A stretch of 50,953 bases of DNA, from positions 124,001-174,953 of the IMG/VR virus record IMGVR_UViG_2860317346_000001; one strand, written 5' to 3'. The stretch is from an uncultured virus (IMG/VR IMGVR_UViG_2860317346_000001) (taxonomy: Duplodnaviria; Heunggongvirae; Uroviricota; Caudoviricetes). The notes beneath the pieces were generated by a model. That model was not told the DNA's origin and did no database searches. It saw only the letters and a list, made by a program, of their open reading frames with translations. A program made the translations under genes and the position numbers. Shown piece by piece: positions 2,885 through 41,242 of this stretch (position 1 is its first letter; each line of letters opens with the position of its first letter).

Positions 2885-4534
2885 ATGAACAGATTCAGCT
2901 CAATCGTAGCTGTGCGTGAAGACGCACTCCAATTATTTCAGATAGCTAAAAACGCTAAACACACTGGTGTCGTGCAGAAGCATGACAGGTTCGGAAAATA
3001 CAACAGGTTCCTTCCCGGAACCCACGATACGATGAAACGGTTCGTCATTGACGACCTCATCAAAAGACGGCTGCATAACTCGATTTATGCGAAGGCGAGT
3101 GTAAACAATGACCTCGCCGATGACGAAATGGGTGTACCAAAAACTTTATCGGAGACAATTCCGGTAAAAGTGTTAAACGTAGAAGACGCAACGGAAGTAG
3201 TCTTCAAAACCGGAGAGTTCGATTCCGGTAAATTCAAACACAAAAAGATACAGGACTACGTAGAAGGTAGACATTTCTACCCAGGTAACGTAGTTCGGGT
3301 GAACGATGCGTTGTTCATCGTAAGTAGTGACGGTACGTTTGAAGAAGAAATCGTACCAGTGGTACTCCTTAGACGGGGTGTGAAAGACGGTGACGAAGTT
3401 ATTATAATCCGCCACCCCGTAAAAGCACTGAATACCATTCTTCACAAGAAAGTGAAAATCGTGGACACCGGAGACGTTAAACAGTACGTATTACAGTTTA
3501 CGAACGTAACAATAAAATACATCGAAGGAGACTTCGATGGTGATGCGGTAAATGCACTATTCTTCGATTCACTTCACGCAGACGTAGATATAGATAAACC
3601 AGCTGAAAAAGCCGGTAAACCAACAATCAGGCTAGACAAGAAACTACCACCCGTAGCTGAAAGTACAATGAATAGACTGGATGTTTCGGCGATGTTAAAC
3701 ATCGAGGAACCAGTACCATTCATCCTAGCGATATCAAAGTCCATCATGGGTCACCAGTTGGATATCGATGATGTTAAGAAATACATATCCGATTGTCGAA
3801 TTTCGGTATTACTTAACCAAATAATACTATACCCGATAGCACGAAAAGCTATCGAGTTACAAGATGGAGCACGATTAAGGTACCTTGCACAGAAATACGA
3901 TATGAAAATGAACATCCCAGATGGGATGGACGCTGTAGTAGACTACGATTACGCAAATGAAGAACGCATGAGCGAGAACATGGAAATGTTCATCAGGTGC
4001 TACTTCAAGGGCTACGGCCCAAAGTTGAGTGGCTACGTACAGAAACTTCTACTCGATGTTAGTGGAAACTTCAGTATCGAGGACAATAAACTGTTATACA
4101 GAGGGGACACTGTATACACGGACAGAGAACTTAGAGGTAAACACCTTATCGAGGTCATCGAACTGATAAACGCCCTTCAACAGGACGTTATCGGACTGAA
4201 ACATATAGATGCGCCGTTGTCAAATTTGGACAGAGCATACGCATTACAGCGATTGTTCCAGTCTAAAACCAAAGTAAAAGCTATCGGTGCCGATGGTTGT
4301 ATACGAATATTCGAAAGCTTCGGGCTCAACAAGTGCGCTGCGAAGATGGCAACGATATGTCTGTACGCAATCACTGGAGCTGAACTTCCAGGTACACCAA
4401 TAGTAAACTGTCATGGAACAAAAGAAAACTTGACGTGGAGCTGGGGTGTAGCGGACAGATTTATCAAAGGCGACATCAGAGAAACACCGATAACGTACGG
4501 TGTGACGAATTTCATTAAACATAATCAAATTTAA
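2885..4534 (+). CDS. Divergent two-barrel RNA polymerase catalytic subunit (beta'/RpoA'-like)
   Basis: KRRLHNS..LADDEMGVP matches GKRVNFS..LSIDEVGVP; DGDEVIIIRHP matches DGDIVLFNRQP; YIEGDFDGDAVN matches YNADFDGDEMN; motifs in the correct order. Confidence 0.85.
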   Translation: MNRFSSIVAVREDALQLFQIAKNAKHTGVVQKHDRFGKYNRFLPGTHDTMKRFVIDDLIKRRLHNSIYAKASVNNDLADDEMGVPKTLSETIPVKVLNVEDATEVVFKTGEFDSGKFKHKKIQDYVEGRHFYPGNVVRVNDALFIVSSDGTFEEEIVPVVLLRRGVKDGDEVIIIRHPVKALNTILHKKVKIVDTGDVKQYVLQFTNVTIKYIEGDFDGDAVNALFFDSLHADVDIDKPAEKAGKPTIRLDKKLPPVAESTMNRLDVSAMLNIEEPVPFILAISKSIMGHQLDIDDVKKYISDCRISVLLNQIILYPIARKAIELQDGARLRYLAQKYDMKMNIPDGMDAVVDYDYANEERMSENMEMFIRCYFKGYGPKLSGYVQKLLLDVSGNFSIEDNKLLYRGDTVYTDRELRGKHLIEVIELINALQQDVIGLKHIDAPLSNLDRAYALQRLFQSKTKVKAIGADGCIRIFESFGLNKCAAKMATICLYAITGAELPGTPIVNCHGTKENLTWSWGVADRFIKGDIRETPITYGVTNFIKHNQI

Positions 4535-4556
4535 ACAAACAAACAGGTGTAAGAAC

Positions 4557-5645
4557 ATGTCAAAAATCCTATCCAACATACAAAACATAACTATCATAGA
4601 AAAGGAAACGAATCCAAATATTCGTAACCTTTTATGGAAAAGGGCACTGAACAGTGCCATCACGAATGTGCACTATAACGTCACAACAAGACGAGCATAC
4701 ATCCGAAATGGGAACTACGGAAAAGGACTCGTATCTGAAGAGATACGAGAACCATCATGTGTAGTCGTGCCAGTTGCACACTTAAACGTGTACGACTGCG
4801 CAGAAGATATCTTTATCGTGAATGACAGCACGATGAAGGAAGAAATCAAGGTCACGAAAGTACATGTGCTAGAGAAAGACACATGTACAGTAATGAGCGG
4901 TGACAAGGTCACAAAAGGTCAGACCATCGCTTACAGGGAAGAGCCGTACTACCAAGTCGGCTCGAAACTTGATGGTGTTGTCGAAGTCATCAGAACGGTG
5001 TTCGACGAAAGAGTGGTAATCACCCAGACATTCAGACTCGCTGATACAATCGGCGTAAAGATGATTGGGTACGATGCCCAGAAGGGAACAACGATTCTCG
5101 GTCACGACAGATTCGAAATCGTTGATAAACAACCAGACGCAGACATGAAAGCTTCATTCGAAGCAAATGGTATCGAAGTACTACCGATACCAGAAGACTT
5201 CAATCAGATATCAATCGTAGGTGACGCTGATTCGATATTGAAACGCGAATCGAGTGGGTATCTCGCAAACATATCCCTGGGGATGAAACACGATACCTAT
5301 CGTGAACCTGAATGGGACAGCTACAGGCACGTGTACGCTGGGAAGGTCTTGGACAAGAAGACAGGAACCGTACATGACGCGATAGTCGGTATCGCAACGT
5401 TCGTGGTCGGAGAACAAACTCCGAACTACGAACTAAAAGTACCTAAGTCCACACACGAATTGATTGGGCGAGCAAACGCCGCTCCATCAACGGATATCTT
5501 TAGCCAGTACTTCATGGCTGCGAAGTACCCAGAGGACATTAACAGAATTCTCGGAAACGAGATAATCGATTGTATCGATTGGGATGAGGTGTCGCGACAC
5601 GGTAAGATGATTACTGGACAGGAAATCGCGGTGTCATTCAAATGA
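4557..5645 (+). CDS. Divergent two-barrel RNA polymerase second subunit (beta/RpoB C-terminal-like)
   Basis: YDCAEDIFIVN matches GYNQEDAIIIN; GVKMIGYDAQKGT matches GDKFASRHGQKGV; IVGDADSILKRESSG matches IIINPHAIPSRMTIG; LDKKTG matches YDGRTG. Confidence 0.8.
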   Translation: MSKILSNIQNITIIEKETNPNIRNLLWKRALNSAITNVHYNVTTRRAYIRNGNYGKGLVSEEIREPSCVVVPVAHLNVYDCAEDIFIVNDSTMKEEIKVTKVHVLEKDTCTVMSGDKVTKGQTIAYREEPYYQVGSKLDGVVEVIRTVFDERVVITQTFRLADTIGVKMIGYDAQKGTTILGHDRFEIVDKQPDADMKASFEANGIEVLPIPEDFNQISIVGDADSILKRESSGYLANISLGMKHDTYREPEWDSYRHVYAGKVLDKKTGTVHDAIVGIATFVVGEQTPNYELKVPKSTHELIGRANAAPSTDIFSQYFMAAKYPEDINRILGNEIIDCIDWDEVSRHGKMITGQEIAVSFK

Positions 5646-12336: not shown

Positions 12337-12537
12337 ATGGTTGAAGAACGAACGTGTGAAAACTGCAAACACTTTAGAGCGAAAAATAAGAAAGGTATGC
12401 CCGAAGGTATCAAATCCATAACGTTTTTACTCACAGCGTGGGTTATATCGGTTGCACAATACGGCTGGACCAGTTTGTGGGCTCTAACAATCCTCGCGTG
12501 TATAATTTTGGTGTTACACAAAGGTAATTTAGAATGA
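12337..12537 (+). CDS. Small membrane protein with CxxCxH
   Basis: CENCKHF plus two TM segments. Confidence 0.6.
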   Translation: MVEERTCENCKHFRAKNKKGMPEGIKSITFLLTAWVISVAQYGWTSLWALTILACIILVLHKGNLE

Positions 12538-12759
12538 ATTCGGCAGGTTTAACAATACTGTTAATACTTAGGGACATGATGTACCTATGTCTGTGGAATG
12601 TGGTGCTACATATGTCACTTAGGTACATACGTATGTGTCGACATGACTAGGGTAAGGTATATATACTCACCATTACCACCTCATACACAATTACAAAGTA
12701 CATCAAAACGTAGATGGACGTGCGAGACACGAGAATACGGTACTCTGTTCACCTAATTA

Positions 12760-13108
12760 AACGGAAAACCAGCTTGGCTATGCACCACGGGATGTCATAG
12801 TGTAGACGAGCAGCCTGTCGGGACCTCCCATCGGCTCGCAACATAGATTGCGTTGAGGATGACAACGGTCTAAGCCGGGGCTGTCGTAGATAGTTGAAAG
12901 CGGTAAACATACTTGAGGTTACGGTCGTTTCGAACTGTCGATTCGTAAGCTAGCACACTAGAAGTGTAGTGTTGTGTTAGTAACGCCGGGAATCAAGTGA
13001 TATCGATACAAACAAGCGAAATACCTGTTAACACTTTACCGAAACTCTAACAGGAAGCAAGCATCTAGTTTTATGTGATTAGCACATAAGATTAGAGTAT
13101 ATTTTTTT
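12760..13108 (+). ncRNA. Putative large structured RNA ending in a terminator hairpin
   Basis: No long ORF, GC-richer, several stems; 14-bp hairpin 13064-13096 followed by a T-tract. Confidence 0.5.
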
Positions 13109-13321
13109 TACGTTTTATATATAATTATAGCGCGAAGCGCCCAATGCGAGTGCAACGAGGTGTGAGTTGACGAACACCGAGTGGGCAACGCAACGAGTTA
13201 TTTAAAATATAATAATACAACGACAAACTTGGAGTAAAAAGAACTAAAGTTCCGTACGTATACCAACGAACACAACGTACGTCAAATTGCTCAGGAGTAT
13301 AAACTTTTTTCAGGTGTTTTT

Positions 13322-13762
13322 GTGAAGTGTCAAAAGTGCGGTAGCGATAGCTTTACTTACGGTTCGATGGAGCCGGAAGACGATTGTATCGTTCAATCGA
13401 TTGAATGTGACAATTGTAAAGAAGAATATACACTCGTAGCGTATCCTAATTGGCAGGTGGAAGGTCAAGAGAACTTTTTATTTAATGTATTCGCGAAAGC
13501 TGATATGGTTAGGGACGTACAACTAGCAACGTATTCACCGACGTGTCCTAATAATTGTGATACGTGTAAAAAGTATGTCTGTGAAAACTGGGTGGATATA
13601 CCGGATAATGATGTATTATTAGGTAAAGTCCGAGCGAAAAATGCGGACGAAGCGATTAAATTCTTCGTACAACAAGTCGGGATACACAACACCGACAACA
13701 TGTACGCTGAAATTGTAGATGAACAAGCTACAGAAATTTTTCAGAAACCGTCAGAACAATAA
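13322..13762 (+). CDS. Zn-ribbon / Cys-rich protein
   Basis: CQKC...CDNC; CPNNCDTCKKYVC. Confidence 0.75.
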   Translation: MKCQKCGSDSFTYGSMEPEDDCIVQSIECDNCKEEYTLVAYPNWQVEGQENFLFNVFAKADMVRDVQLATYSPTCPNNCDTCKKYVCENWVDIPDNDVLLGKVRAKNADEAIKFFVQQVGIHNTDNMYAEIVDEQATEIFQKPSEQ

Positions 13763-13815
13763 AATTTATTTACTATCTACAAAATGGAAAAAATAACAAC
13801 ACGTAAGGTGATTAG

Positions 13816-14445
13816 ATGGAACATATAGAAACTGTAAACTTAAGCGCTATGATGGGCGATGCTGAAGGTGAGACTGGTGATGTAAACGTACCTACAGCTG
13901 TACCTGAAGGTGAAAAAGCTGCGACAACTGGAACGGCTACACCAAGTATTTCACTTGAATCAACAAACGAAGCAACGAACTCGATTGATGAAAGTGTAGA
14001 GGAAAACGTAGAAGGCGAAATCGTTATTGAAGTTGTACCAGAAGATAAAGGTGAAGAAATCACCAACGGTGCCGAATACGGTGTAGTGGTTGGTGGTGAA
14101 GTGGTAGTTAAAGAAATTGACATCGACTGGCATGAATTCGGTATGCCGAACGCGGCTGTGAAAAGGATTATGAAGTCTGTATCTGACGATAAGAATATTT
14201 CAGCTGACGCGGTTGAAAAGATGAAATCGTTAGCAATCGAATACATTATGGGTGTTACAAAAGATGCGAACGCTAGGTGTGAAGCTAAGAAAAGAAAGAC
14301 CATTATGGACAGAGATATCGAAGATACAGCAAACGGTATGCTATCGGATAAACTCTTAAGTATGGCGAGTAAGTCCGTGAAAGTGGAACTACTAACTAAC
14401 GAATTCGTGAAAACGATAGCAACTGAAATTGCAAACGTACAATAA
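13816..14445 (+). CDS. Archaeal histone-fold protein with long acidic N-terminal extension
   Basis: MPNAAVKRIMK...ISADA...KRKTIMDRDIE aligns with HMf-type histones; fold starts near 14143. Confidence 0.85.
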   Translation: MEHIETVNLSAMMGDAEGETGDVNVPTAVPEGEKAATTGTATPSISLESTNEATNSIDESVEENVEGEIVIEVVPEDKGEEITNGAEYGVVVGGEVVVKEIDIDWHEFGMPNAAVKRIMKSVSDDKNISADAVEKMKSLAIEYIMGVTKDANARCEAKKRKTIMDRDIEDTANGMLSDKLLSMASKSVKVELLTNEFVKTIATEIANVQ

Positions 14446-14476
14446 TTAAAAGCTACACATTACGATTGGTGGTTTA

Positions 14477-14740
14477 ATGTCAAGATACAAATTCGATAAA
14501 CAACACGAAAAGTTTAATTTAACGATTCAAATTGTAGCACAAGCCATGGTAATCGTAATCGTAAACGTTATTTATTTTTACAACTTCATTTCGCTATTCC
14601 ACTTCATACTCGTTGTGAACGCTCTTATGGTAACGTGTGTTTTATCTGAAGTACTTAGTGCTAAAGCTATACTAAGGTTATACAATGCATGTGATATGGC
14701 AGTTGACCACATCGAAGAAATGAAGAGAAAAAGAACGTAA
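14477..14740 (+). CDS. Small membrane protein
   Basis: Two TM segments. Confidence 0.65.
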   Translation: MSRYKFDKQHEKFNLTIQIVAQAMVIVIVNVIYFYNFISLFHFILVVNALMVTCVLSEVLSAKAILRLYNACDMAVDHIEEMKRKRT

Positions 14741-14909
14741 ATGTAATAAAGTATATAAACTATCTACAACTTTTTTCACCTGTAAAACGTGTAAATGGGA
14801 AAATATGATTATAACAGCATTCATTGCCGATACGTTATGTATAATACCGTTCGTTGCATTTTTGCTGTTTATGTACATCCCATATTACGCGATGTATAGG
14901 TAAGGTAAT

Positions 14910-15401
14910 TTGGTAGCAATAAACTCGAAGTCTGTAGGCAATTTAGGTGAAGCTAAGGTGTTATGTAAGTTCGTTGAACTTCGTATACCCGTTTATGTAC
15001 CGTTTGGTGACAATGAAAAGGCTGACCTTGTCGCAGATTTCGGTGGTAAATTGCAGCGGATACAGGTTAAAACGTCTATCAAAGCCGAAGATGGTAAGAT
15101 GATATTTGACTTGACCTCAACGTTAACGAAGAATAAAAAGTATATAAGGCGTAAATACGAAGATGGTGAAATCGACTATTTCGCATTGTATAACGTTACA
15201 CGTGACAAAATTTACCTCGTACCATACAGTGAACCGAAAACTGTTATGTTTATTAGATACGAACAACCTAAGAACCGTCAATCAAAAAAGGTACACTTAG
15301 AAGAAGATTATCTGATAGATAACGTACTCGGAAAAATCGATGAAAATTACGTTACAATTAACGAATTCGTTAATTGTACAGTAGATGAGGTAGTTGCATG
15401 A
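14910..15401 (+). CDS. PD-(D/E)XK endonuclease (group I intron-associated / I-Ssp6803I-like), free-standing
   Basis: GNLGEAKV...PFGDNEKADLV...RIQVKT...Y..GEIDYFALY. Confidence 0.8.
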   Translation: MVAINSKSVGNLGEAKVLCKFVELRIPVYVPFGDNEKADLVADFGGKLQRIQVKTSIKAEDGKMIFDLTSTLTKNKKYIRRKYEDGEIDYFALYNVTRDKIYLVPYSEPKTVMFIRYEQPKNRQSKKVHLEEDYLIDNVLGKIDENYVTINEFVNCTVDEVVA

Positions 15402-15757
15402 ATTATTTTGCGTTGTTAAAAGGGATAAACGCTGCTTTAAAGAAAGGTACTGAGTTTTCGACGAAAATCGTGATGGTTATGATTTTCATGGCGGGTTTAA
15501 TTCTGTTTATGTTTAGTGGTAATATGCCACAAGCTATAATGCTCGTGCTAATGGAAATCGGTGACATTATATGTACTATTACCGTTACATTCATGATATT
15601 ATACTGTATCTGTGAAGGTGTCGAAATCGCTAAAGAAAGATACGACCAATACGTCGCTGAATTCAAAAAAGCAGATGAATGTACGTGTGATCGTGAATGT
15701 AAGTGTTTACCGGAACCAGAAGCAGTATCCGAAGAAATTAAAGCGCAGTCGGCGTGA
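15398..15757 (+). CDS. Membrane protein
   Basis: Two TM segments, Cys-rich tail. Confidence 0.7.
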   Translation: MNYFALLKGINAALKKGTEFSTKIVMVMIFMAGLILFMFSGNMPQAIMLVLMEIGDIICTITVTFMILYCICEGVEIAKERYDQYVAEFKKADECTCDRECKCLPEPEAVSEEIKAQSA

Positions 15758-15761
15758 TTAA

Positions 15762-16073
15762 ATGTATAAATGGTGTATACTAAGAGCGTTCAGTGACTTT
15801 ATTAACCGAGCGTATAACGCTACGGGTTTTTTAATAGTTATCTTTGGTTTGTGTATACTCATTGCGATATTTGCATTACCAAACGATAGCTCAACACTGA
15901 GTTTCATAATAAAAGCGGGTGAACGTCCAGCTGGTATATTGGGTTCAACGTTACTCGCATTAATGGGTATTAAAGTTTTGTTATTCGTATCAGGTTACCG
16001 AAAACGGATAGAATTAGCGTGTATGAATTGTTCACGAAACGCTAACTGTGACGATGACGTCTACTGTAAGTGA
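15762..16073 (+). CDS. Membrane protein
   Basis: Two TM segments, Cys-rich tail. Confidence 0.7.
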   Translation: MYKWCILRAFSDFINRAYNATGFLIVIFGLCILIAIFALPNDSSTLSFIIKAGERPAGILGSTLLALMGIKVLLFVSGYRKRIELACMNCSRNANCDDDVYCK

Positions 16074-16341
16074 TAACATGTTAACGATGTGGAACTGGCT
16101 AAATTTAGCAAGAAACGTACTGGGTTACATCCTCAGTATATTAACGGCTATAATCGTGTTTGTACTATGTATGATGCTGTTATACTTCAGTTTGACGTGG
16201 ACTCTAAATGACCCAGGTTACGAAATATGCTTCATGGCTATCAAAATGTGCTTACGTGCTATGATAGTGTTCGTGTGGCCGTACTTGATTTTACAATATT
16301 TCAGGAAACCTATCCTGAATAGATGTAAATCATCTATTTAA
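16048..16341 (+). CDS. Membrane protein
   Basis: Two TM segments. Confidence 0.65.
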   Translation: MTMTSTVSDNMLTMWNWLNLARNVLGYILSILTAIIVFVLCMMLLYFSLTWTLNDPGYEICFMAIKMCLRAMIVFVWPYLILQYFRKPILNRCKSSI

Positions 16342-16343
16342 TG

Positions 16344-16826
16344 TGACAACCAATATGCGTCAACGTAAGGTTTAGGTTAGATTTTCCTTACGGTGCTGCG
16401 GTTGTCAGGGATTTTTGATATGTTCGGTGTGAATAGGGTGAAGACGTTCCCAAACAACCCTATTCACACTTTTCGTGGCGACGCTTGGAGACGTCCAGTA
16501 TGTACAGTACATACAGTTGCCGCTACTTGGTCGTGTATTTACGACCCAGGTTGCCGGGTGTCCTGAAGTAAACACTCGTTATGGTAGGTTATGGTAAGTT
16601 CGGAACGTTCAAAGTCTTTGAGGACCTGTCCGGGGTTGGGTGGAGTAATTAACCACCCGTGACCTCGGCGACTTCCGGCACCTCATCATTAAATGCAGAG
16701 ACCTGTACCTCCGCTAAATAGTACAGGGTAATAGAGTGAACCCACGAGGATACGGTCAGAGATTGAATTGTATACTCGCTAGAGGAGTATTTTAGGGATT
16801 CATGATGCTCGATATAGCGTGGGTTC
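16344..16826 (+). ncRNA. Putative large structured RNA(s)
   Basis: Consecutive stems, e.g. 16344-51/16400-07, 16427-39/16457-69 (13 bp), 16738-46/16818-26. Confidence 0.55.
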
Positions 16827-17331: not shown

Positions 17332-17404
17332 GCTCCTGTGGCGCAGTAGGTAGCGCGTCGGACTGTTAATCCGAAGGTCGCAGGTTCGAGCCCTGCCGGG
17401 AGCG
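17332..17404 (+). tRNA. tRNA-Asn(GTT)
   Basis: Canonical cloverleaf; anticodon arm TCGGA-CTGTTAA-TCCGA. Confidence 0.95.
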
Positions 17405-17783
17405 CTTAAACACGGTCCGCAGTTAAGTTTGCGGAAATAGTAGGCATTTATCTCCAAAAAATGTTTTCTTAACTTCTTCTATAGGTAATATAACTCTAAA
17501 ATACTTTAATCTTGTTTCTCTCAAAATAACACATACAGCGGTACACACTGTAATGGGTGGGTGTACCGCCTATTAATTTAAGTCTGTTGACAAACATGTC
17601 ATATCATATCACTTCCAATCGTGTGGTTCTTTTTACCCGGTGAGACGGTTTTTGGACCACACATGAATATTTTTTATGGCGTTCGTAAAACGCACGGGTT
17701 TCTCTTTTTACCGTGCGTTTGCCGTCATGATACGATACTATTGAGAATGTATAAATACACCCGGTGTAACCCACCGGGGTTTT

Positions 17784-17854
17784 GATGACGTGGTCTAGTT
17801 AGGTTTGGGCTCCCGTGCGAACGGGGACAATGGGTTCGACTCCCATCGTTATCA
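17784..17854 (+). ncRNA. tRNA-like RNA with the anticodon loop replaced by a GCGA tetraloop
   Basis: Acceptor GATGACG/CGTTATC, T arm ATGGG-TTCGACT-CCCAT, stem CCCGT-GCGA-ACGGG. Confidence 0.75.
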
Positions 17855-18061
17855 CTGTTCTTTTCAGTTTATTGGGTCGGTTAATAAATTTAGACACCAA
17901 CGTGAGTCAAATCACGAGCCGACTGCGAAAACCACGACTTCGCAATACAAAATCGTGGCCGGAAATGGTGTTATTCACACTACCTTTCTGAAAGGTTTTG
18001 TTGTTTTGTCACGTTACAACTAAATGAAACGTGGTGGTGTCGAACATACCCTTTCCACCCT

Positions 18062-23591: not shown

Positions 23592-25100
23592 ATGGAAAGT
23601 TATAAAGTTAAAAACTTCATCAAGGCGATAGCCGAGAAGCTCTTACCGGGATTAGTCGACTCGTACAAGTTTACGCATTTTTTAGGTTATCCACCGGATA
23701 CCGAGTATGTATACCTGTACATGATGGCCCGACCTAACAGTGAAATGACCAAATCGGAACAAGTCGTGTTTTTCGGACTGCAGTACTACATCAAGGAATA
23801 CCTTGAAGGTGTAGTAGTAACGCACGAAATGATTGACGAGTTAGCTCCAATGATAAGAGCTTACGGATACCCACAATTTAACGAAGAAGGTTGGAGATAC
23901 ATTGTTGACAACCACGGTGGAAAGTTACCGGTTGAAATTAAAGCGGTACCGGAAGGAAGCTACGTTAATAGGGGTAACGTGTTGATGTCAATTGTCAATA
24001 CCGACCCGAAATGTTACTGGTTACCATCATACTTGGAAACGTTGTTGCTAGAGATGTGGTACACCTGTACAGTGGCAACCCACGCTAAAGAACTTAGAAG
24101 CTTAATCGAACCTTACGTGCAGGAATCATGTGACGATTTATTCGACATCAACTTCAAAGTGCACAATTTCGGTGCGAGGGCTGGACCAGCTCCTGAAGCC
24201 ACGAGACTTGCAGGTATGGCGCACTTAACGTCATTCGTTGGAACTGATACCTTCGATAGCGTTTATGCTGCGAAAAAGTATTACAACGAGGATAACGCCG
24301 GTATTTCAATCAGCGCGGCAGAACACAGTACCATCACATCATGGGGTACTGGTAAAGCTAACGAAACCGCAGCGTACGCTAACATGCTTGATAAATTCGG
24401 ACACGAGCCGTTGTTCGCTTGTGTTAGTGATTCATACGATTACGAGTATGCAGTTGAGCACATCTGACTCGGTGAGTTAAAAGAAAAATTGTTATCTGTA
24501 CCAGCAAAGCTTATCATAAGACCTGACAGTGGTGACCCTGTACAATCAACGATATTCGCCGTTGATATGATACTTGAAAAACTTGGGTACGAATACAACC
24601 AAAAAGGCTACAAAATAGCTAAAGGTGACAAAGCCGGTGTTATACTTGGTGATTCTGTAACACCTAGAGTTATTCAAGAAGTTATGTCGTACTTAATGGA
24701 AAACAAAATCAGTGCGTCGATGGTTAACTTCGGTATGGGTGGTGCACTAATGACTGGTGATAAAACCAGAGATACATACGGTTTCACAATGAAGTGTTCA
24801 GCTGTATGTAGGGATGGTAGCTGGTATGAGTGTTTCAAGATGCCTAAAGGTAGTGCATTCAAAACTTCACTTGGTGGTATGTTCCACGTTGTTAAAGACA
24901 TGGGATTCTATCACACTACGGTTAATCATACCGATGAAGAATGCGACGAATTACAAACTGTATTCAAAAATGGTGTTATTGTAAGAAACGAAACGTTAAC
25001 CAACATCAGAAACAGGTTAAGTAGTGAAATAATTCTCGGTATGAGTAGGACCGATAAAGAAGCTAGAGAAGTTCCAACCGAAGTGGCGCAACCGTGTTAA
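23592..25100 (+). CDS. nadV: Nicotinamide phosphoribosyltransferase interrupted by in-frame TGA at 24465-24467
   Basis: DSYK, FFGLQY, HNFGARA, AAEHS, VSDSYD, IRPDSGD, FGMGG; both ORFs are in the same frame. Confidence 0.85.
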
Positions 25101-38192: not shown

Positions 38193-38894
38193 ATGGAAGC
38201 AATACCGTATACGTGGACAGCACAAATACCGAATAGTGACACGGATTGTGTCGTAATCGAAAAGATTGACGGTAGTTGTCTTCAAATTCTGTACAAACCT
38301 AGTGAGGGTGTGGTATTCGCCAATGATGTTGGTATTCTTGAAATATCCACGGAATCACAATTCGAAGTTATGTACAGGTACAAAAATAAAAACTACAAAT
38401 ACCTATACGATACACTTGGTGTTTTCGCAAGACGAACATATGATATGGACGTCGATTACATTTCATTCTTAGGCTACATCTACGGTGGTGTAGACCAGAC
38501 TATGTTGTATTCCCCTGCATCGGAGTATTTAGTGAAAGACATCGTTATCGTATTAGTAGATGGTACACGCGTTTTAATACCACACGGTGTGATGGATACC
38601 ATACTCGATGGTATGCTACCAACGTCGCCGGTTAAATTCACCGGAACGTACAGTGAGTGTTTCGATTACGTCGTGAATAATTATTCAAAAGCCCAATCTA
38701 AATTATACATCGACCATTACGGTGTGTATAAAGATATTATCGATTATGTTGACAATGTTGTTTATGGTCTCGAAATCAGAAGATTATCTTCCGATTCATT
38801 ATACGAGTCCGAGCTGATGTTTTCGGCTGAAGAGTCTATTGTGAAACCTGTAACTTCGGTTACTAAGTATCCAGTAGCTGAGGGATATCAATGA
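38193..38894 (+). CDS. RNA ligase (Rnl2-like) nucleotidyltransferase domain, possibly degenerate
   Basis: VVIEKIDGS (motif I KxDG); FLGYIYGG at motif III; GLEIR at motif IV. Confidence 0.55.
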   Translation: MEAIPYTWTAQIPNSDTDCVVIEKIDGSCLQILYKPSEGVVFANDVGILEISTESQFEVMYRYKNKNYKYLYDTLGVFARRTYDMDVDYISFLGYIYGGVDQTMLYSPASEYLVKDIVIVLVDGTRVLIPHGVMDTILDGMLPTSPVKFTGTYSECFDYVVNNYSKAQSKLYIDHYGVYKDIIDYVDNVVYGLEIRRLSSDSLYESELMFSAEESIVKPVTSVTKYPVAEGYQ

Positions 38895-39169
38895 ATCCCT
38901 CCATTACTTTAGCTTTGAATCGTTCAAAGTTAAGAAAACGAATTTTACAAGTGTTACACGACAACCAACAGGGTATGTATTTGTCACAAATAGCAAGAGC
39001 TTTAGAATGCCAAGAGTCTAGTATACTCGGTTGTTTGAAAGGCATGGGTAAACGTTATTCCGCTGATAGGGCTTTAGTGAATCTCGGTTTGGTCAATCTT
39101 AATGTAACACATGGTACTAAGATATATACACTGACACATGTCGGTAAAACTGCTTTAGCTACACTGTAG
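38891..39169 (+). CDS. earA: EarA-family archaellum transcription activator homologue
   Basis: LNRSKLRKRIL...YLSQIAR...SSILGCLKGMGKRY...LVNLGLV...YTLTHVGK. Confidence 0.8.
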   Translation: MNPSITLALNRSKLRKRILQVLHDNQQGMYLSQIARALECQESSILGCLKGMGKRYSADRALVNLGLVNLNVTHGTKIYTLTHVGKTALATL

Positions 39170-40955: not shown

Positions 40956-41053
40956 TTATTTTCATTTATTATTTGCCCCAATACAAACAACCAAAACTTA
41001 ACAAATGTGTTATTTTTTTTACAACGTGTTGGTGGGGCCCAACATATTAACGT

Positions 41054-41125
41054 GGACGTATGGTGTAATGGATAGCATACTAGCCTGCGGAGCTTGAGAT
41101 TCGGGTTCGATTCCCGGTATGTCCG
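41054..41125 (+). tRNA. tRNA-Arg(GCG)
   Basis: GGACGTA/TATGTCC acceptor; loop CTGCGGA; T arm TCGGG-TTCGATT-CCCGG. Confidence 0.85.
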
Positions 41126-41242
41126 TTTTATTTTTTTGTAATGTTACAACGTATATATGTAGGCCTGTACATATGTTGCGCTGTATCTATGTTTCACCGT
41201 GTGTAACTTAGTTATGGATTAACCTATTATACGTAGCACCCT

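Follow-up and report, generated by a model that had tools for sequence, protein, structure and literature searches.

The window analyzed here, a stretch of DNA of 50,953 nucleotides, forms the end of a 174,953-nt IMG/VR virus record that carries a terminase, a family B polymerase, a ligase, NrdD, and three tRNA calls and probably represents a large head-tail virus of methane-making archaea. On the plus strand of the window, an open reading frame at 13816..14445 encodes a putative histone of the MJ1647/HmvA type (Mc), 209 amino acids in length and furnished with an N-terminal acidic arm. A Shine-Dalgarno-like site with a GGTGA core (13806..13812, plus strand) lies 4 nt 5' of the ATG codon of Met1. 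The gene falls into three parts, all read on the plus strand: the acidic arm (residues 1-109; 13816..14142), a histone fold (residues 110-175; 14143..14340) delimited by the profile PF00808, a position-by-position alignment, and an AlphaFold2 superposition, and a C-terminal helical module (14341..14442) whose homology to the tetramerisation module (TM) of MJ1647 is indicated by sequence comparison and a tail-only HMM. An earlier, sequence-only reading of this locus had placed the start of a histone fold at residue 110, behind a Glu-rich, low-complexity arm and ahead of an extension of about 35 aa. PF00808 does match residues 110-169 (E 6e-14), and the extension is present and corresponds to an MJ1647-type tetramerisation module; the low complexity of the arm is real but mild (entropy of 3.62 bits vs. 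3.81 bits for the core). A Logan contig with a depth of 573 spans positions 12500-16500 with 0 differences, an agreement that is not independent because this contig may be the source sample.

The AlphaFold2 model of the core (mean pLDDT 84) superposes on HMfB (1a7w; model residues 3-71 on chain residues 1-68) with a Z score of 9.1 and an rmsd of 1.2. The basic residues K116, R117, K120, the RKT motif, and R166 are retained; of the minor-groove anchors, R10 is kept as R117, and R19, the HMfB residue of the RT pair, is lost (N127), a change that had been overlooked before. On the DNA face, basic positions are lost at K4 (now N) and K55 (now M164, where K is nearly invariant), the latter of which we take to be a DNA contact, and the lysines K17 and K49 are gained. 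A candidate virus-specific loss at D165 was rejected, as the host Mc histone L061 has the same residue. Anchored on RKT (R160-K161-T162 = HMfB 52-54), the alignment equates HMfB positions 46, 49, 59, and 62 with R154, A157, D167, and D170. This register is supported by eight canonical histones, in which position 46 is L or F, 49 is H, 59 is D, and 62 is L, M, or A, and by the A3 numbering L47-H50-D60-L63 (PMC10516927). The previous observation that RKT and D59 are kept while L46, H49, and L62 read R, A, and D is borne out both by this alignment and by the HMfB superposition. L46, H49, D59, and L62 serve as criteria for the dimer-dimer interface (PMC6136690), and this combination of nucleosomal histones is not present in the viral protein (R154/A157/D167/D170). 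D59 is also the partner in the R52-D59 salt bridge of the fold (PMC6136690), a second role that the earlier reading had missed.

To place these substitutions, we compared the viral core with 25 distinct Mc histones, representing 26 of 30 Methanococci loci plus MJ1647; the loci L046, L052, L054, and L059 were left out of the alignment, and two of the 32 genome matches described below had no locus. Position 46 is N in all of these proteins, position 49 is K, R, A, or N, and position 62 is never L, so that L46, H49, or L62 is present in none of the 25. Since the same residues are lacking from every host Mc histone, the "broken interface" is an inherited and normal trait of this histone type and not a new one. 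At position 19, 22 of the 25 Mc histones have N, the other 3 have Y, and all eight canonical ones have R; the viral N127 carries the substitution that marks the Mc type. The canonical histone L025, outside the set of eight, has L/H/M at the three interface positions, together with R19.

Database searches point in the same direction. The best sequence match in the PDB is 8BDK (E 3.9e-9, residues 110-204), the next one reaching 1e-5 and covering the fold only. Among 1.84 billion representative proteins, 20 matches were found at E<=0.001, three of which, beyond the protein itself, span the C-terminal module: HmvA of M. voltae, the MJ1647 cluster, and an unnamed 122-aa protein. Of 40 Methanococci genomes, 32 yield exactly one match to the core; the best has an identity of 44% (E 1.5e-16), and these matches sit in open frames of 101-128 aa that correspond to the Mc histone. 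The named best loci are Methanothermococcus copies, with 42-44% identity. Identity amounts to 29-42% for the 25 Mc histones vs. 20-27% for seven canonical histones of Methanococci, and to 35% for one histone from Woesearchaeota. In the phylum of a Woesearchaeota record, said to include coiled-coil (CC) histones, the core matched 5 of 151 genomes (best E 7e-5), in no case beyond residue 80, and a PF00808 sweep of these 151 genomes found no identifiable CC histones. Features from the ESM Atlas matched other archaeal and bacterial histone clusters with scores of 0.87-0.88, below the Atlas bar, and a Foldseek search of BFVD returned eukaryotic-virus histones only.

In a quick tree built without the long unnamed rows, the viral protein and the Mc clade stand together against the canonical histones (SH-aLRT 99). 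A careful tree that includes the long rows places the viral copy outside the host clade, on a long branch with weak support (88/67), beside unrelated long rows. Leaving out Met1, 44 positions have the same residue in 24 or more of the 25 host Mc histones; the viral copy is identical at only 24 of these, and the NCBIfam model NF043032 scores it at 41 bits, below its cut-off of 50. By sequence searches, identity, and the quick tree, this divergent fold is nearer to MJ1647 than to canonical histones, and we consider it very likely, on these comparisons, that residues 110-209 are a diverged member of the Mc histone family known from Methanococcales. The unnamed 122-aa protein (P0009), encoded on a 1.3-kb contig, is itself a diverged Mc-like histone that has kept K80 and E95; it is without an N-terminal arm, its loop 1 contains an insertion, its C-terminus is extended, and it possibly stems from a mobile element.

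Helices are predicted in the C-terminal extension, and its alignment to the Mc module is ungapped up to residue 205. An HMM built from the tails of host Mc histones gives the viral tail 15.5 bits, compared to 8.1 bits for the best of 1000 shuffles. The salt-bridge pair K80-E95, present in 25 of 25 host copies, is kept as K189 (codon at 14380-14382, plus strand) and E204 (14425-14427, plus strand); E87 is likewise found in all 25 Mc histones and kept, and the distal TM helix as a whole is well preserved (K80, L84, E87, I92, E95). The junction between alpha3 and TM is wholly changed (C62, D63, E65, R66, K/R68); in the model of MJ1647, K68 takes part in tetramer contacts (PMC10516927). In the monomer models, alpha3 and the first TM helix run together, with a fused helix of 21 residues. 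In the fold search, 8BDK ranks 9th and 14th, behind NF-YB, with an rmsd of 8-9, and it is absent from the 50 rows of a structure search that used model residues 1-79 alone. Judged by its sequence, the 35-aa extension is an MJ1647-type tetramerisation module.

The arm contains 21 E and 6 D residues, 3 K, and no R, which gives a net charge of -24, and it is the most acidic of 1665 windows of 109 aa (step 20; runner-up -17) taken from the 133 non-overlapping ORFs of at least 150 aa in the virus record. The complete protein has a net charge of -22 and its core one of +2, compared to -2 to +6 for host Mc histones. AlphaFold2 assigns pLDDT values below 50 to most of residues 1-100, with a possible beta-hairpin at residues 89-98, so the acidic disordered tail that characterizes CC histones is present in the viral protein. 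Of the 133 long ORFs of the record, 46 have the GGTGA motif ahead of an early in-frame start codon, and no Shine-Dalgarno-like site was found 5' of Met110. Synonymous-codon use in the arm scores +7.3 bits. This value falls into the top quarter of in-frame chunks of 109 codons, whose median is 3.6, and exceeds the 99th percentile of off-frame chunks (3.0), but the test is not clean because one reverse-strand frame of the region also scores +5.2. Because a ribosome-binding site lies at Met1 and none at Met110, and because codon use in the arm is coding-like, the long form with a translated arm is the likely product.

No relative of the arm was found in protein searches up to 366 aa. The full-length query recovered only itself among 243 candidates of 114-366 aa, and the core query matched none of five candidates of 57-182 aa; an alignment query against proteins of 52-366 aa yielded 22 matches out of 4700, namely the protein itself, 19 Mc-type histones (97-99 aa), and two proteins of 69 aa. 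Host Mc copies comprise 96-102 aa. Upstream of 26 genome loci there are 3-31 open codons with at most one acidic residue, and the upstream open frames of 17 metagenome loci of Mc-type histones comprise 1-22 codons; an arm is present at none of these loci. A search of viral contigs found no relatives of the histone core, and neither the virus record nor two host islands contain a second histone. The arm is known from one genome only, and no conservation therefore backs its function.

Mc histones have been called exclusive to Methanococcales (Schwab et al., PMC11390915). The classes of viral histones named by Liu et al. (bioRxiv 2024.12.06.627149) are VTTH, VHHH, VFFH, BBVH, MFVH, and VKH; the accessible main text contains no Mc class, no Mc profile in its list of methods, and no mention of "Methanococc", although the supplements may list the protein. 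Nothing on a viral Mc histone appears in the accessible part of PMC12934983, and we found no published report of one in a search that covered the subscription literature thinly. The Mc core itself is known; what is new is its viral location and the acidic arm.

The genomic context points to Methanococcales as the probable host. An EarA-like archaellum regulator is encoded at 38891-39169 on the plus strand (PF07381, E 3e-22); it is 41-48% identical to EarA of Methanococci (26 of 40 genomes), has a second copy in the island of genome G024, and could alter host motility or receptor display. Two genes upstream of the histone gene lies a non-coding element of ~600 nt (about 12650-13300, plus strand), which occurs in two copies each in two Methanococci islands (G022:C2:119352-121337 and G024:C1:317400-320216) with 75-85% identity. 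A TATA-like box lies at ~12654-12667, a hairpin followed by a T-run occupies 13064-13110, and five copies of its 3' ~230 nt display compensatory changes in 12 of 51 predicted pairs. Rfam gave no match at E<=1, and folding of the single strand is unremarkable (z -1.5); the element is a candidate for an undescribed structured RNA of archaeal mobile elements. Because the comparisons of the EarA-like gene and of the non-coding element, on which the host assignment is based, covered Methanococci only, this assignment is probable and not proven. No exact CRISPR spacer-like match was found in the two 20-kb portions searched of the 175 kb, a promoter scan of the virus stayed at chance level (12 vs. 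9.9), and viral contigs yielded no relatives of the RNA-polymerase-like protein, the terminase, the EarA-like protein, or the non-coding motif.

Three ORFs of the context carry an RNA-polymerase-type DxDGD motif; two further motif matches look like chance. One encodes a protein of 549 aa (window 2885-5645 including the downstream ORF, plus strand) with the motif DFDGD and a weak match to PF00623 (E 2e-6), and the next ORF encodes a 362-aa protein that has a weak sandwich-hybrid match, an arrangement that suggests a very diverged two-subunit polymerase. The identity of this gene as RNA-polymerase-like is weakly supported. A second protein of 328 aa is encoded on the plus strand elsewhere in the virus record (G000:C1:60253-61239); these two DxDGD proteins have no match in the 40 Methanococci genomes. 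The third is a 5748-aa ORF outside the window (G000:C1:85470-102716, minus strand) that adjoins the terminase and has NADFDGD near residue 374, a match to the RNA polymerase family phrog_2987 (E 1.7e-6), and, in its C-terminal part, a match to a peptidase (E 8e-14). By analogy with the Thermus phage P23-45, it is a possible virion-carried RNA polymerase in fusion with a tail protein or an ejection protein. The window further contains a NAMPT-like gene in two consecutive ORFs of 291 and 203 aa with a short gap (23592-25100, plus strand; PF18127, PF04095), which may reflect a split gene, read-through, or a frameshift, a tRNA call with an undetermined two-base anticodon (17784-17855, plus strand) beside a tRNA-Asn (17332-17405), and, apart from these, a tRNA-Arg (41053-41126). 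Elsewhere in the record, a guanylate-kinase domain is fused to a Tad2-like (anti-Thoeris) domain (G000:C1:30700-31599, plus strand).

MJ1647 forms a tetramer through its C-terminal module, binds and protects DNA in steps of 60 bp, gives rise to DNA-dependent higher oligomers or filaments, bridges duplexes, and blocks promoter access in vitro (PMC10516927). A mutant devoid of the module still displayed signs of contacts between neighbouring dimers; MJ1647 did not co-assemble with the canonical histone A3, its mRNA made up about 4% of the histone transcripts, and no MNase signature of it was seen in vivo (PMC10516927). With this protein as a guide, we propose that the viral protein is a self-tetramerising bridging histone of the Mc type that is damped by its acidic arm, and assign a probability of about 0.5 to this mechanism as a whole. 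The fold would mediate homodimerisation, two dimers would join back to back via their C-terminal helices, and the tetramer would bind and bridge DNA without canonical hypernucleosome stacking, as extrapolated from MJ1647. Less certainly, the four disordered arms (net -24 each, compared to +2 for the core) might fold back over the basic DNA face. Highly acidic disordered tails are common on CC bridging histones and have been considered possible intramolecular inhibitors (PMC11390915); with this precedent and the charge of the arm in mind, the arms may serve as a built-in brake or chaperone, and a role as internal DNA mimic or brake is plausible by analogy. As the arms would keep the protein soluble and its binding dynamic, viral DNA could be organised or shielded during infection without transcription being frozen. 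The gene sits with small non-structural genes and well away from the virion module, which points to a role within the infected cell.

Alternatively, the viral copy might act as a decoy that joins host MJ1647-type dimers via its module, its arm and weakened DNA face spoiling their bridging. Promoter blocking would likewise be spoiled and viral DNA derepressed, an archaeal counterpart to H-NST, T7 gp5.5, and T4 Arn. The kept distal TM helix (K80, L84, E87, I92, E95), the loss of K4 and K55, and the charge of -22 of the full protein vs. -2 to +6 for host Mc histones would fit this reading, as would the presence of one Mc histone in each probable host, the ability of MJ1647 to block promoter access in vitro, and the existence of phage- and island-encoded antagonists of the bridging protein H-NS (PMC8501957). 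We nevertheless consider it unlikely. MJ1647 would be a small target in view of its transcript share and lack of an in vivo MNase signature, we found no published report of Mc histones silencing foreign DNA, the basic residues K116, R117, K120, RKT, and R166 are retained, and a decoy should track its host partner, whereas the viral protein lies on its own long branch and not within the host clade. The corresponding origin, in which a host bridging histone was captured long ago and turned into an anti-silencer with its own acidic DNA mimic, is likewise doubtful. If true, the decoy would be a means by which a virus counters archaeal histone chromatin, and Mc histones would by implication be H-NS-like silencers of foreign DNA; poisoning of the host copy would reveal the purpose of these histones.

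A role in the virion has a low probability. The protein would be a DNA-condensing precursor whose Glu-rich arm is a propeptide cut by the head-maturation protease, and the internal proteins of phages offer an analogy for such propeptide removal. This would suit a head-tail virus (terminase phrog_2, E 9e-15), a long disordered Glu-rich leader, and a core that by itself is a complete Mc histone; yet the gene lies among small non-structural plus-strand genes, and the terminase is encoded some 30 kb away on the opposite strand.

The sequence-only reading had concluded from the loss of L46, H49, and L62 that the protein dimerises but cannot polymerise and had suggested that it could cap or disrupt host hypernucleosomes. 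Capstone variants are a published idea (PMC10516927), and a dimer-only protein that forms pairs with canonical host histones, or caps them, could use its acidic arm to bind basic histones and strip hypernucleosomes for the viral RNA polymerase. Loss of these residues does not mean dimers only, since MJ1647 has the same losses and forms TM tetramers and, on DNA, higher oligomers; here, too, the extension is the tetramerisation module, and its retained salt-bridge pair would be needless in a dimer-only protein. Capping of canonical hypernucleosomes is unlikely because MJ1647, which tetramerises and bridges DNA, did not pair with canonical A3, and we regard this scenario overall as very improbable.

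Internal translation from Met110, which had been named as an event that would overturn the earlier reading, would leave the arm as an untranslated open frame and yield a plain 100-aa Mc histone. Met110 does stand at the beginning of the fold, and the product would resemble the 96-102 aa of host Mc histones. Still, the ribosome-binding site precedes Met1 and not Met110, 109 codons without a stop have a chance of only about 0.001 by trinucleotide frequency and show coding-like synonymous use, Met110 aligns with the conserved L/I2 of host Mc histones (25 of 25) and not with their start Met, and the gene would lie behind a 380-nt gap; such a start is highly improbable. Equally improbable is membership in the CC class (long C-terminal helix plus acidic tails) with a partly convergent Mc likeness, to which the disordered acidic tail, a CC feature (PMC11390915), the 21-residue fused helix of the monomer model, and the top ESM Atlas feature clusters (Altarchaeota and Iainarchaeota, weak) could be taken to point.

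Compared with known systems, the bridging histone proposed here shares with HMfA/HMfB and A1-A3 the fold (Z 9.1-9.4, rmsd 1.0-1.2 over 65-68 residues), the R52-D59 pair, and RKT, but it has not kept R19, L46, H49, and L62 and possesses an additional arm and module. Like the histones of Caudoviricetes and Borgs, some of which are predicted bridgers, it is borne by an archaeal virus or element, but the classes named in the accessible text of these reports (bioRxiv 2024.12.06.627149; 2024.11.05.622173) include no Mc type. The H-NS antagonists H-NST, T7 gp5.5, and T4 Arn (PMC8501957) are functional analogs for the decoy reading only; they are not homologous and have a bacterial target. With the Mc histones (MJ1647/HmvA, 8BDK, arCOG02145; PMC10516927, PMC11390915), previously described as tail-less and restricted to Methanococcales cells, the viral protein has in common the loss of R19, the lack of L46/H49/L62, the two-helix C-terminal module with K80 and E95, and 29-44% identity over about 96 aa. 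It differs from them in being virus-encoded, in its 109-aa acidic arm, its changed alpha3-TM junction, and the loss of K4 and K55, and in standing outside the host clade on a long branch. CC histones such as HMfC (PMC11390915) resemble it in a C-terminal helix design for bridging and in highly acidic disordered tails at the N- or C-terminus, which have been proposed to cover the DNA face, whereas the C-terminal part of the viral protein matches the Mc module and has no sequence match to candidate CC histones. The viral copy joins the Mc tetramer module to the type of tail found on coiled-coil histones. This combination suggests that acidic tails evolved on two occasions as a means of tuning histones that bridge DNA, and it offers a bench test of the "intramolecular inhibitor" idea with MJ1647 as the tail-less control. 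By analogy, the viral protein is best understood as one that works like a tailed CC histone and is an Mc histone by descent.
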